A stretch of DNA of 64,000 nt from Pirellulales bacterium (GTDB lineage Bacteria; Planctomycetota; Planctomycetia; Pirellulales; DATAWG01). The translations under genes were made by a program, and so were the position numbers. This document shows, piece by piece, positions 24,945-30,425 of the stretch. The stretch is from positions 189,207 through 253,206 of the forward strand of contig CAVTYW010000019.1 in assembly GCA_963738955.1 (NCBI GenBank). Direction: 5' to 3'. Every line of letters begins with the position of its first letter. Position 1 is the first letter of the stretch. The notes below the pieces were generated by a model. That model did no database searches, had not been told where the DNA came from, and was given only the letters and a program-made list of their open reading frames with translations.

Positions 24945-27522
24945 TCACGTCGTTGACGCGGTTTCGCCCGTGCTATCGTCGGCTCCCGTTCCCGCGCCGA
25001 CCGTCGCTGCTTCGGCCGGTTCGCCGACGCTGCCGACGAAGTAAAGCTGCTTCTTGCCGCCGACTTCTTTCGTGTCGACCGTGATCATGTTCTTGCCTTG
25101 GAATTCGCCCTTGAGCAATTCCTCGGAGAGCGGATCTTCGACGAACGTTCTCGATCTCGCGACGCAGCGGCCGGGCGCCGAAATCGAGGTCCGAACCCTT
25201 CTGGATCAGGAATTCTTCGCCGCATCGGTCAGCATCAGCTTCAGGCCGCGCTCGCCCAGTCGCATCGCGAACCTTCGACAGCTCGATGTCGATCACGTTC
25301 TTCAGATCGTCCATCGTCAAATGATGGAACACGATCACGTCGTCCACGCGGTTCAGGAACTCGGGACGGAACACCTTTTCGATCCGCTCCGTGACGCGCT
25401 GCTTCATGCTGTCGTACGAGGCGTCGTCGTCCGGCTTTTGGAAGCCGAAGGCGGATTCGTTCTTGATTGCCTCGGCGCCGGCGTTGGTGGTCATAATCAA
25501 AATCGTGTTGCGGAAATCGACGTTGCGGCCGAAGCTGTCGGTCAGCCGGCCTTCTTCCATCACTTGCAGGAGCATGTTGAACACGTCGGGATGGGCCTTC
25601 TCGATTTCGTCCAGCAGCACGACCGCGTACGGCCGGCGGCGGATTTTCTCGGTCAGCTGCCCACCCTCTTCGAAGCCGACGTAGCCCGGCGGAGCGCCGA
25701 TCAACCGGCTGACGTTGTGCTTCTCCATGTATTCGCTCATGTCGATCTGAATCAGCGCATCCTCGTCGCCGAACATGAACTCGGCCAGCGCCTTGGCCAG
25801 CAACGTCTTGCCGACGCCGGTCGGCCCGGCGAAGATGAAGCAACCGGTCGGCCGCTTCGGATCTTTCAACCCGCTGCGGCTGCGGCGGACGGCTTTGGAG
25901 ACGAACTTGATCGCTTCGTCCTGGCTGACGACTCGCTTGTGCAGCTCGTCTTCCATCTTCATCAGCCGCATGCTGTCTTCGGTGCTCATGCGCGTGAGCG
26001 GAATGCCGGTCATCTTGGAGACGACTTCGGCGATCACTTCTTCGTCGACCACGCCGTCGGCCTCGCGCGAGCGTTCGCGCCAGTCGCGGGTGATCGTTTG
26101 CTTCTTCTTCTTGAGTTTGTCGGCCTGGATCGCGCAGCGACGCGGCCTTTTCGAAATCTTGATTGGCGACCGCCTCTTCCTTTTCCTTGTTGAGCCGCTC
26201 GACTTCGTCGTCGATCTCCTTCAAATCCGGCGGCTTGGTCATCGCCTTCAGCCGCACGCGGGCGCCCGACTTCGTCGATCACGTCGATCGCCTTATCCGG
26301 CAGGCAGCGGCCGGTGATGTAGCGGCTCGACAGTTCGACGGCGGCTTCCAGCGCGTCGTCGGTGATTTGCACGCGATGGTGCGATTCGTACCGATCGCGC
26401 AAGCCCTTGAGGATTTCGATCGTTTCCGACTTCGTCGACGGTTCGACGATGATCAACTGGAACCGCCGGTCGAGCGCGCTGTCCTTCTCGATGTACTTGC
26501 GATATTCATCGAGCGTCGTCGCGCCGATGCACTGGATTTCGCCGCGGGCCAGGGCCGGCTTGAGCACGTTCGAGGCGTCGATGGCCCCTTCCGCGCCGCC
26601 GGCGCCGACCAGTGTGTGCAATTCGTCGATGAACAGGATCGTGTTCTTCGCCCGGCGGACTTCGTTCATCACCGCCTTGATTCGTTCTTCGAACTGACCG
26701 CGATACTTCGTGCCGGCCACCATCATCGCCAGGTCGAGCACGACGATCCGCCGGTCGGCCAAAAGCTCGGGCACGTTGCCGTCGACGACCCGCTGAGCAA
26801 AGCCTTCGACGATGGCCGTCTTGCCGACGCCCGCTTCGCCGAGCAGCACCGGATTGTTCTTCGTGCGGCGGCAGAGAATTTGGATTGCCCGTTCGATTTC
26901 CTTCTCGCGGCCGATGACCGGATCGAGCTTGCCTTGGCGAGCCAGCTCGGTCAGATCGCGGCCGAAGCTGTCGAGGGCAGGTGTTTTCGATTTGCCTGCT
27001 TGCGCCGGTGCCACTGCCGCCGCTTCCGTCCGCTCCGCCGCCTCGCTCGACGCCGCCCCGTTCGCCCCCTTCGCCTCCTTCCATGCCGTGGCCCAGCAGG
27101 CTGAGCACTTCCTCGCGGACGTCTTCCAGCTTCAGGCCGAGGTTCATCAACACCTGCGCGGCGACGCCTTCTTGCTCGCGCAACAGGCCGAGCAGAATGT
27201 GCTCGGTGCCGACGTAGTTGTGGTTCAGATTGCGGGCCTCTTCCATCGAATACTCGATGACCTTCTTGGCCCGCGGCGTTTGCGGCAGCTTGCCCATCGT
27301 GACCATGTCGGGCCCGCTTTGGACGAGCTTCTCGACTTCGAGGCGAATCTTGCGCAGATCGATGTCGAGGTTCTTGAGCACATTGGCGGCGACGCCGCTG
27401 CCTTCCTTGATGAGCCCGAGCAGCACGTGCTCGGTGCCGATGTATTCGTGGTTGAAGCGCTGGGCCTCTTGGTTGGCCAGTTGCATCACTTTCCTGGCCC
27501 GATCCGTAAATCGTTCGTACAT
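24945..27522 (-). CDS. clpC: Clp protease ATP-binding subunit ClpC, frameshifted in assembly
   Basis: [13 protein letters not shown]-domain, NBD1 [28 protein letters not shown]2 [24 protein letters not shown]. Confidence 0.96.
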
Positions 27523-27751: not shown

Positions 27752-28414
27752 TCAAGCGGCTTTCGACACGGTCGGAGCCGGAACCTGGCGTTCCGATTGC
27801 CCAACGTCGGCAGCGACCGCCGCGACACTGCCGGTTTCAACACTGCCCGTCTCGCCGCCGCTTTCGTTTTTGTTCCGCTCCGCGGTTCGCGTGCTGCCCA
27901 TTTCGGCTAACCGGGACCGCAGCCGAGCGATCTCCATTCGCCAGTGCTCGCTGCCATCCATCCGCTTCAGCCGGTCCAATTCGCCGGCCGCTTCTTTCCG
28001 CCGAGCCGTGCGTGCCAATAGCGCCGCTCGCATCAACCGGGCTTCAATGTCCAGTACGTTTCGATCCAACAGCCGGCCGAGGGCCGTCTCCGCTTCGAAC
28101 CAGTTTCCCTTGAGATATTCCTCGCGGGCGTGCAGGAACAATTCGTTGTCGGCCGGCCGAAACCGTCCGATTTGCAAACCGCCGACCCACCGCCACGAAG
28201 CGGCTGCCGAAACGGTCCAAATCGCCGCCAGCATCAGCCAAATCGCCGTCCGCGTGGCCGGGCTAAACAGCTCCGTCCACATCCGGCTGGCTAACAACCC
28301 TAGGTCCAAAAGAGCCGCAAAGCCGAGGGCAATCGCCAGCCCCGACCATGCCCCGGCAAACCACAATTGGGGCCAACCGGGCCACAGCAACGTGAGCCAC
28401 CGCAGTTGGCGCAT
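27752..28414 (-). CDS. Membrane protein with TPR-like C-terminal region
   Basis: LWPGWPQLW, TM helices, AREEYLKGNWFEAETAL; upstream of and co-oriented with clpC. Confidence 0.7.
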   Translation of the reverse strand: MRQLRWLTLLWPGWPQLWFAGAWSGLAIALGFAALLDLGLLASRMWTELFSPATRTAIWLMLAAIWTVSAAASWRWVGGLQIGRFRPADNELFLHAREEYLKGNWFEAETALGRLLDRNVLDIEARLMRAALLARTARRKEAAGELDRLKRMDGSEHWRMEIARLRSRLAEMGSTRTAERNKNESGGETGSVETGSVAAVAADVGQSERQVPAPTVSKAA

Positions 28415-28664
28415 GAGTGAAACCTCCATGTCAAACCGAAGCCCACGAATCGGGCTGCCTCCAGGCTCGGGAATTTTAACCCCCGACTCGGGATCGTACA
28501 AGGCAAGTTAAAGACAGCTTTGGAGTTAGGACAGCCGCGTGAACGATACTGCCCTGACCCCAAGCAGCACTGGGGCGCGGCTCATGGCAAACTCGGTATC
28601 TTTGTTCCTTGAAACGTGGCAAATTGGATGGCTGTGACATCTCCCGCGAAAGAGGACGCGATCG

Positions 28665-29832
28665 ATGTACGAACGATTCACCGACCGAGCCAGGAAAGTG
28701 ATGCAATTCGCCAACCTAGAGGCCCGGCGGTTGAACCACGAATACATCGGCACCGAGCATTTGCTGTTGGGGCTCATCAAGGAAGAAACCGGCGTCGCGG
28801 CCAACGTCCTTAAGTACCTCGATATTGATCCGCGCAAGATTCAGCTTGAAGTCGAAAAGCTCGTCCGAAGCGGACCCTACACGGTCACGGTGGGCAAGCT
28901 GCCGCAAACTCCCCGCGCAGAAAGTCATCGAATATTCGTTGGAAGAAGCTCGCAGCTTGAATCACCACTACATCGGCACCGAGCATATTCTCCTTGGCCT
29001 GTTGCGCGAGAAAGAAGGCCTCGCCGCGCACGTGTTGATGAATCTCGGACTAAATCTCGAAGATGCCCGCGCTGAGGTCTTGGTAGTTTTGGGTCGGGAC
29101 ATTTCAGCGTTGAATCGTGTGACACCAGATCCGCCACGAAGCCCAAGAACGCACAACCCGAAGAACATCGAAGCGGAGATTGATCGCCTGCAAAGGAAAA
29201 AAGAAGAGGCGATTGCCAGCATGGACTTTGAGAAGGCGGCCTCGCTGCGAGATCAGATCGATGGTCTCAAAAGCGACTTGAGACGTACCCTTCGTGCAAG
29301 AATCCGTAGGCTCAAGCTGCGGCTAAAATCGCTATTGGGCCGTTCGCATGATTCCGCGAAGCCGGCAGCGAGCATTGAACCTAAATCAGACATCGCGTAC
29401 TCGCGATTTACGGATCGGGCATTGGCGGTAATGCAATTGGCGAAACAGGAGGCGCGGCGATTCAACCATGAATACATCGGCACCGAACATGTGTTGCTTG
29501 GGCTAGCCATTGAAGGGCACGGCGTTGGGGCCAATGTGCTTCGGAACCTCGACATCCGTGTGCGCAGAATCCGGCTTGAAATGGAAAAACTCATCCAACG
29601 CGGGCCTGACGCGGTCTCCATCGGAACTCCGCCGCAAACTCCCCGAGTCAAGAATGTGATTGAATACGCGATGGAAGAAGCCCGAAGTCTAAACCACAAT
29701 TACGTCGGCACCGAGCATATTCTCCTCGGGCTGTTGCGTGAGCAAGAAAGCGTCGCGGCGCAAGTGTTGATGAGTTTTGGATTGAAACTGGATGAGGTCC
29801 GTAATGAGACACTCAAACTACTTGGGCCCTGA
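28665..29832 (+). CDS. ATPase-less Clp N-terminal-domain protein (ClpN-UVR-ClpN), frameshift near 28918
   Basis: Two ClpC-like N-domains (four YxGTEH motifs) flanking [20 protein letters not shown]; no Walker motifs; stop at 29832 then hairpin. Confidence 0.88.
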
Positions 29833-29871: not shown

Positions 29872-29918
29872 AAAAAAGCGGGAACGCGTTCCCAAGAAAC
29901 GCGTCCCCGCTGGTTTTT
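29872..29918. terminator. Probable bidirectional intrinsic terminator
   Basis: AAAAAAGCGGGAACGCGTT-loop-AACGCGTCCCCGCTGGTTTTT between convergent genes. Confidence 0.7.
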
Positions 29919-29981
29919 ACTTGCAGCCCGATTTGCTTGCGTTCGCGCGGCCGGCGATTGCCGGCGAGCGAAACAGCCAAT

Positions 29982-30425
29982 TTACTTCGCCAACTTATAG
30001 CCCTTCGAAACATCGGTAAACACCGCGTTGATCTGTGCGTCGCCTGCCAATGCGGCGGCTTTCTTCTTGCAATTCGCACAGCAGAAGGCAACCTTCACGC
30101 CGCCGACGTCAACCGTTTGCTCGGCGTTGATCGGCTTGCCGGTGAATGGGCAGGCGGTTTGCTTCAATTGGCCGGTGACGACCATCTGGAGATGCGCCTT
30201 GGCTGCGTATTTCGTGCTGTCTTTCGCAAATTCCTTGGGGCAATTGTCGCAGCAGAAGTAGACCTTGCCGCCGTCGAAATCGACCGCGTGATCCTTATCG
30301 GCCGCCTTGCCGGATACCGGGCACTTGCCGGCGGTGTCGGCCTTTTCGTCGGCGGCCCAACCGTGAACGGCCCACAATGCCATCAACGCCACGACGATTC
30401 CAAATACTCGCGTCTTCATGCTCAA
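29982..30425 (-). CDS. Exported protein with two YHS/TRASH-like metal-binding repeats
   Basis: Signal peptide; CPVSGK...VYFCCDNC and CPFTGK...VAFCCANC. Confidence 0.85.
   Translation of the reverse strand: MSMKTRVFGIVVALMALWAVHGWAADEKADTAGKCPVSGKAADKDHAVDFDGGKVYFCCDNCPKEFAKDSTKYAAKAHLQMVVTGQLKQTACPFTGKPINAEQTVDVGGVKVAFCCANCKKKAAALAGDAQINAVFTDVSKGYKLAK

Follow-up and report, generated by a model that had tools for sequence, protein, structure and literature searches.

An ATPase-less protein of two ClpC-type N-domains and an M-domain copy, encoded near clpC in a Pirellulales bacterium

Genes and features at the locus

We examined a stretch of 64,000 nucleotides from a Pirellulales bacterium (contig CAVTYW010000019.1, positions 189,207 to 253,206), which is referred to here as the window. 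The gene of interest lies on the plus strand at 28665-29832 and comprises 389 codons and a stop once two missing bases at 28918/19 are counted. Its product runs from one N-domain through an M-domain copy to a second N-domain, and the gene is called N-MD-N below. On the minus strand lie clpC (24948-27522, with an approximate 3' end coordinate), which is spread over several frames in this assembly, and upstream of it orf249 (27752-28501), which encodes 249 aa, gave no Pfam match and adjoins clpC in relatives too. The original prediction described the gene as divergent from clpC; the divergent orientation was borne out, but orf249 intervenes, and the partner is the orf249-clpC pair. At the other end, the convergent orf147 (29982-30425, minus strand) encodes a 147-aa Cys-rich protein with TRASH/YHS-like matches under the cut-off.

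The window was compared with Logan contigs from four soil-metagenome runs, which are not raw reads of the sample. On one syntenic metagenome contig, L029, the genes clpC, orf249, N-MD-N, orf147, orf216 and orf526 have the order and orientation that they have in the window, and the flanking proteins of the two share 83-97% identity. The intergenic region common to the N-MD-N gene and the divergent pair (28502-28664) falls within an aligned stretch (28480-28680) that is 89% identical between the window and L029, and it was found to be conserved above the synonymous sites of the flanking genes (pS 0.27-0.38). A 41-nt run at 28492-28532, reaching from the orf249 5' end into the shared intergenic region, is identical in both and may be a regulatory site. 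A promoter scan returned 0 sigma-70-like sites. A putative Shine-Dalgarno-like element, AAAGAGGA (28649-28656, plus strand), could be read 8 nt 5' of the ATG at 28665, and L029 holds a purine-rich TGAGGG equivalent at this position.

Between the convergent genes, a GC-rich hairpin of 16 pairs (29877-29911), conserved in L029 and followed after its plus-strand stem by GGTTTTTA, is likely a bidirectional terminator. A terminator of the gene's own had been proposed; a hairpin does stand 3' of the gene, but it is common to the convergent downstream gene and was flagged by the terminator scanner on the minus strand only. It was also noted that a 29-nt GC-rich insertion forming an inverted repeat (GCCGGCGATTGCCGGC) at 29943-29971 is absent in L029; it sits in the 3' intergenic region, just past the stop of orf147.

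The RFTDRA, PQTPR and four GTEH motifs on which two ClpC-like N-domains had been predicted were all found in the translated frames. The first frame (28665-28922, plus strand) contains YIGTEH and GKLPQTPRA, and the next (28921-29832, plus strand) continues with KVIEY, YIGTEH and LVVLG, followed by a Pro-rich linker, the M-domain copy, a second linker and an N2 reading of YSRFTDRA...YIGTEH...PQTPRVKNVIEY...YVGTEH...LLGP, with the stop at 29830-29832. The first ClpC-type N-domain (N1, 28665-29094, plus strand) keeps RFT, two GTEH motifs and PQTPRA, and the second (N2, 29395-29829, plus strand) keeps RFT, two GTEH motifs and PQTPRVK. An N-domain of the Clp_N type is a pair of ~53-residue Clp_N repeats. 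Pfam Clp_N (PF02861; cut-off 20.7 bits) matched three stretches of the 303-aa piece behind the frame break (9.8e-50) and the 86-aa piece before it (1.3e-16), giving four repeats and so two N-domains; the L029 ortholog gave four stretches at 3.6e-59. The part between them (29152-29343, plus strand), predicted as a copy of the ClpC middle domain, is a helix-turn-helix coiled coil with a Phe at its tip that matched Pfam UVR (PF02151; E 1.3e-10) and aligns to the ClpC M-domain, the tip Phe falling on F436. Its second helix is long and very basic (RRTLRARIRRLKLRLKSLL). The order in the product is Clp_N x2, UVR/M-domain copy, Clp_N x2.

Besides Clp_N and UVR, nothing on either piece rose above the Pfam cut-off, no AAA family was matched, and the Walker A motif is absent from the product, as had been predicted of the AAA modules. 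The product is therefore outside the class I Hsp100 unfoldases, which have two AAA+ modules with Walker A/B. In an NCBIfam search, the ClpA, ClpB and ClpK models hit N-terminal parts only, at 59-99 bits against cut-offs of 993-1900, and neither Pfam nor NCBIfam gave a DNA-binding domain. The gene encodes a real, ATPase-less N-domain/M-domain/N-domain protein.

We then assessed the likeness of the parts to ClpC. N1 is 83.5% / 78.9% identical to the N-domain of the ClpC of its own genome and N2 76%, while N1 and N2 share 64-67% identity with each other; the ClpC N-domain itself is 100% identical between the window genome and a genome of the same family (G002). N2 of the L029 ortholog matched ClpC N-domains in the PDB at E ~1e-45, and the middle part of the ortholog could be aligned with residues 410-463 of B. 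subtilis ClpC, F436 included. A model N-domain superposed on ClpC1 N-domain structures with a TM of 0.93, an rmsd of 1.4 A and 57% identity. The structure model placed helices at 164-185 and 189-227 in the M-domain copy with a turn between them; its domains are confident and their mutual arrangement is unreliable (pTM 0.41, with mean pLDDT of 42-55 in 4/5 models). Residue numbers follow PMC12583610 and an alignment with B. subtilis ClpC. By this numbering, N1 and N2 both keep the counterparts of T7, E32 and E106, which belong to the two phospho-arginine (pArg) pockets, and the equivalent of K85 is kept in N2 and in N1 of relatives. By these pocket residues (RFT and four GTEH), both N-domains would be phospho-arginine readers.

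Frame integrity, selection and distribution

The predicted frame indel near 28918 was placed at 28918/28919 (28918-28920, plus strand), where the window reads CGCGC-AGAAAG and relatives read CGCGC(CA)AGAAAG, corresponding to Arg-Ala-Lys-Lys. One 459-nt contig from a soil-metagenome run (X4), ~94% identical to the window over 28663-29116 with 26 differences, has 'CA' inserted behind 28918, and 'CA' is also present in L029 at the break and in both paralogous N-domain copies there. With the two extra bases, ...PRAKKVIEY... and a 389-aa frame are restored, equal in length to the intact ortholog at L029:4953-6119, which runs through 389 codons uninterrupted. The 2-base gap is the sole frame-disrupting difference between the window and L029 in the N-MD-N gene. 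The N1-to-linker junction is crossed by the X4 contig, and the linker-to-N2 junction by an X1 contig (29256-29496) with 0 differences.

Similar gaps were seen in the adjoining genes. Compared with L029, in which clpC is an open 857-aa frame, the window clpC has six non-triplet indels (~25150, 25212, 25266, 26127, 26270 and 26996), and orf249 has one, a base missing at 28416/17; an X2 contig independently shows an extra C behind 28416. Two of the clpC breaks are one-base homopolymer changes against G002, and the window clpC pieces show 94-100% protein identity to ClpC of another genus. Because almost no amino acid has changed, real decay of clpC by six frameshifts is not credible. It was noted that most of the Logan depth over clpC stems from conserved parts from other organisms. 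The window assembly comprises 6.97 Mb at a completeness of 60.69%, and since indel errors are frequent in it, frame breaks there are not to be taken as pseudogenes. The break at 28918/19 is very likely an assembly error. The coding regions from 30.6 to 34 kb were observed to have triplet indels only against L029, so that the errors are concentrated near the three copies of the ClpC-type N-domain. On another contig of the same genome (C17:566182-567419) there are two tandem clpP genes, with clpP1 split over three frames, a further indication of indel errors in this assembly.

Selection was examined by dN/dS and dS (Nei-Gojobori; window versus L029). The first 85 codons of N1 gave a dN/dS of 0.21 (dS 0.44), and the remaining 303 codons gave 0.285 (dS 0.53). 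Within the latter, values of 0.23 for the second half of N1, 0.22 for the M-domain plus helix and 0.26 for N2 were obtained, versus 0.86 for linker 1 and 0.74 for linker 2. Constrained domains joined by free linkers point to a functioning multi-domain protein that is selected and is not a decaying copy. The four neighbouring genes (dS 0.34-0.49) gave 0.036 for orf147, 0.10 for orf526, 0.21 for orf249 and 0.28 for orf216; the values for the N-MD-N domains (0.21-0.29) exceed those of orf147 and orf526, which we counted against the reading of the protein's role preferred below. Judged from these substitution patterns, the N-MD-N gene is intact and under purifying selection. The expectation that decay was unlikely was thus upheld, both by the absence of the indel from L029 and the X4 contig and by the selection on the domains.

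A full-length N-MD-N match was found in 0 of the 30 relatives searched, and the same-genus genome G001 gave no match beyond clpC and one other Hsp100; the gene is therefore accessory. In two genomes of the same family (G002 and G004), orf147, orf249 and clpC are adjacent with nothing between orf147 and orf249, which makes the gene an insertion of ~1.4 kb confined to one sub-lineage, made up of the window, L029 and the relative seen in run X4. With the middle module only as query, a search of 5.8 billion proteins gave two matches at E <= 0.001 among 283 candidates, namely the L029 ortholog and the window's own product; one partial contig adds to these. The fused N-MD-N ortholog group is very narrow and lies in a sub-lineage of a Pirellulales-like planctomycete.

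Divergence from the genome's own clpC (dS 0.5-1.0 for the N-domains and ~2.4 for the M-domain) places the duplication before the split of the window and L029. In N-domain trees (FastTree with 294 rows and a quick IQ-TREE with 48 rows), N1 of the window pairs with N1 of L029 (support 92) and N2 with N2 (support 86), whereas the deeper tree is a star around the invariant ClpC N-domain, so that single and multiple origins are not separable by it. Independent derivation in this lineage had been proposed. The narrow ortholog group and the insertion between genes adjacent in G002 and G004 agree with this; on the other hand, motor-less proteins with two or three ClpC-type N-domains, some with UVR and some lacking it, are common in Planctomycetota, so the design principle is not unique, and the trees do not distinguish between origins.

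Motor-less N-domain proteins and ClpC partners in Planctomycetota

We sought to place the protein among other motor-less Clp_N proteins. A family search limited to proteins of 166-531 aa gave 7996 matches among 8000 scored candidates. Among the 120 matches listed, none had a Walker A motif, 116 had two or three N-domain matches and four had one. The arrangements among the matches listed were N-N, N-N-N, N-N-UVR, N-UVR-N and N-UVR, and most of these members (N-N and N-N-N) are without UVR. The Clp_N-UVR-Clp_N architecture, for which the original prediction had proposed a search, was found among the matches listed in three members. One (P0004) is the syntenic L029 ortholog at 74% identity and the sole one sharing the same middle module; the other two (P0015 and P0006) are N-UVR-N-like at ~50% identity with different linkers. 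Source names among the matches listed include Planctomyces sp. SH-PL14, Gemmataceae and Ktedonobacteraceae.

In 150 Planctomycetota genomes of at least 90% completeness, four Clp_N repeats were counted in 77, at least six in 39 and at least eight in 16, and the window genome has 11; these figures are matches per genome and not copy numbers. A literature search, limited in range, returned nothing on planctomycetal motor-less N-domain proteins. The N-MD-N protein is thus a member of a motor-less multi-Clp_N family of Planctomycetota that is large and apparently uncharacterised.

Several further arrangements were observed. At three loci, N-UVR and N (+TM) are separate adjacent genes, and N-domains with hydrophobic C-terminal tails stand beside N-UVR genes (L030:911-1570, L031:3-362 and L111:2376-3329); the tails are probably membrane-spanning, which suggests that the family has membrane-anchored members. 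Locus L111, a cluster of N-UVR, N-UVR and N+TM, was one of 80 loci kept from the genome-contig search, and the remaining 79 look like clpC, judged by a match span of ~1.4 kb. From the metagenome search, L029-L033 were examined individually, and the remaining loci look like clpC by match span. A protein on the minus strand of another genome (L027, G003:C100, 2042-3010) combines an N-domain, a CxxC...CxxC (Cys4) ribbon and a UVR-like motif, uniting a ClpC N-domain with McsA-like features. The window genome itself encodes a second motor-less protein (C24:10658-11206; L001:1228-1776) of 182 aa, with a single N-domain 89% identical to that of ClpC, a short basic tail and no M-domain.

A look for mcsA and mcsB in the genome had been put forward as a check. 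In the window assembly, mcsA and mcsB were not found by HMM, nor by tblastn with same-genus proteins, whereas 30 of 30 relatives from the order have an McsB-type kinase domain. Neighbours of the mcsA/mcsB locus are likewise missing from the window assembly or only distantly matched, the coaD-like neighbour seen in G002 not being found, and the whole region seems to be absent from it. Given these missing neighbours and the completeness of 60.69%, the absence of mcsA and mcsB is not evidence of loss. In the two relatives examined for an McsA-like neighbour, an McsA-like gene (Cys-rich plus UVR) was observed directly upstream of an mcsB-like arginine-kinase gene (L109, G001:C21:792-2597; L110, G002:C20). 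No MecA family match was found in the window genome.

A candidate ClpC modulator, its alternatives and known systems

PMC12583610 describes the ClpC resting state as two half-spirals joined solely by head-to-head M-domain contacts, with N-domain pArg sites touching M-domains. [quoted passage not shown] We favour, with a probability of about 0.55, the reading that the N-MD-N protein modulates ClpC in trans, using its M-domain copy for docking and supplying a further pair of N-domains. Its target would be the ClpC/ClpP protease: the M-domain copy would dock on the tip of a ClpC M-domain by a contact of the head-to-head kind that keeps ClpC resting and that MecA caps. Docking would put two extra ClpC-type N-domains on ClpC; overall, the balance between its resting and active assemblies would move, and the choice of tagged substrates or partners that reach it would change. 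Within the modulator reading, an adaptor or activator is slightly favoured over a decoy, the direction of the effect being a guess.

A fold test of L029 ClpC 415-500 against residues 145-240 of the L029 ortholog scored 0.53 (runs of 0.53, 0.55 and 0.50), the best of three controls scoring 0.00. Among 80 solved complexes, 58 attain the mark used, as do 2 of 110 mismatched pairs; those attaining it with a score of <=0.60, however, are just 7 of the 80 solved complexes and both of these mismatched pairs. The runs agreed in 100% of contacts with a partner pLDDT of at least 74, a result graded as weak support. Because a ClpC M-domain pair has already been solved, the pass may reflect memory or mere likeness. 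Also in favour of the modulator reading we count the architecture, the intact and selected frame, the retained functional residues, the McsB-type kinase domains of relatives, the lack of a MecA match and the UVR-domain partners of chloroplast CLPC1; its accessory distribution, the missing mcsA and mcsB and the unreliable domain arrangement in the structure model count against it.

The main rival is a pure decoy or sponge, in which pArg-tagged proteins, adaptors or natural products directed at N-domains would be captured by the two N-domains without contact with ClpC, the coiled coil serving as a spacer or in self-association. We regard this as rather unlikely. In its favour, ATPase-less N-domain proteins already characterised act in this way, mycobacterial ClpC2 being described in PMC10030653 and PMC13345244 as sequestering cyclomarin A and binding pArg; the pocket residues are kept in both N-domains; the genome also encodes the single-N 182-aa protein without an M-domain; and most family members among the matches listed lack UVR. 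However, constraint on the M-domain copy, tip Phe included, equals that on the N-domains (dN/dS 0.22) and exceeds that on the linkers, which a spacer would not need, and the fold test gave a weak pass for the M-domain copy with the ClpC M-domain.

A bolder reading, which we hold to be unlikely, is that the protein imitates a ClpC subunit without its motor and would enter the resting-state network of N- and M-domains and cap or nucleate ClpC spirals in trans. Planctomycetes would then run ClpC with a modular kit of free-standing regulatory parts, a similarly speculative notion in which the kit would consist of N-domains alone, in tandem, membrane-anchored, or fused to zinc ribbons or M-domain copies. 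If true, a subunit mimic of this kind would represent a hitherto undescribed way of controlling an AAA+ protein.

A role independent of ClpC, for instance as a regulator with the N-domains as ligand sensors or as a partner of ClpP or another Hsp100, seems distinctly improbable. It has a precedent in ClpC2, a transcriptional repressor released by pArg according to PMC13345244. The long, very basic second helix of the M-domain copy would also suit such a role. A plant 'Double Clp-N motif protein' (PDB 4y0b), which we take to be ClpT, binding the ClpP core, gave a weak match at E 7.4e-11. Against this, Pfam and NCBIfam searches returned no DNA-binding domain, the domains match ClpC (E ~1e-45) far more closely than they match ClpC2 (E 6.7e-17) or the plant Clp-N motif protein, and the N-MD-N gene stands beside clpC in both genomes that have it. 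Least credible of all, and largely refuted, is that the gene is a decaying partial clpC duplicate or an assembly chimera of clpC fragments: the break at 28918/19 speaks for it, as does the presence of three ClpC-type N-domain copies, whose DNA identity of 75-85% could mislead assembly, but the indel is missing in two relatives, an independent assembly (L029) holds the gene intact in identical order, contigs from other runs (X4 and X1) bridge the domain junctions, dN/dS is far under 1 in the domains (0.21-0.29) and near 1 in the linkers only, and the adjacent, surely functional clpC has six such gaps in the same assembly.

Recent work places N-/M-domain and M-/M-domain contacts at the centre of ClpC on/off control (PMC12583610), and a natural protein made solely of those regulatory parts is a ready-made probe of the ClpC switch. 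It suggests how bacteria without MecA might control ClpC, and it draws attention to the large planctomycetal family of motor-less ClpC N-domain proteins, with extra Clp_N in 39 of the 150 genomes.

Compared with ClpC, the protein shares N-domains that are both 76-83% identical to that of its own ClpC and fold like ClpC/ClpC1 N-domains, together with an M-domain bearing the tip Phe; it differs in lacking AAA1, AAA2 and the ClpP-binding loop, in having two N-domains and not one, and in an M-domain that is not inserted in an ATPase domain. With MecA, the proposed principle would be alike, in that engagement of the M-domain tip decides between the resting state and the active hexamer with substrate delivery (PMC12583610). 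There is no relation in sequence or fold to MecA, and the N-MD-N protein would use copies of ClpC's own parts. The protein resembles actinobacterial ClpC2 as an ATPase-less ClpC N-domain paralogue with a pArg pocket, ClpC2 having been proposed as a ligand sensor and sponge. According to PMC13345244, ClpC2 consists of one N-like domain (~40% identical to the ClpC1 N-domain) and a dimerising, DNA-binding part, and represses its own promoter; in the N-MD-N protein, two near-canonical N-domains flank an M-domain copy, and no DNA-binding domain was detected. The likening to ATPase-less N-domain proteins of actinobacteria made in the original prediction is thus apt as an analogy and does not extend to membership, since ClpC2 has a single N-like domain with a DNA-binding part (PMC10030653 and PMC13345244), and a PDB ClpC2 chain matched at E 6.7e-17 compared with ~1e-45 for ClpC.

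[quoted passage not shown] These CLPC1 interactors and the N-MD-N protein are both motor-less Clp accessory proteins with a UVR motif. ClpF was reported by Nishimura and colleagues in 2015 to have a YccV domain in addition to UVR and an N-domain-like part, and to cooperate with ClpS1. The N-MD-N protein lacks YccV, and ClpF lacks tandem N-domains. Planctomycetal 'Clp protease N-terminal domain-containing proteins', which are database entries only, have identical building blocks. The N-MD-N architecture is unlike that of ClpC2 and of the plant UVR-domain CLPC1 interactors, its nearest characterised relatives by role.
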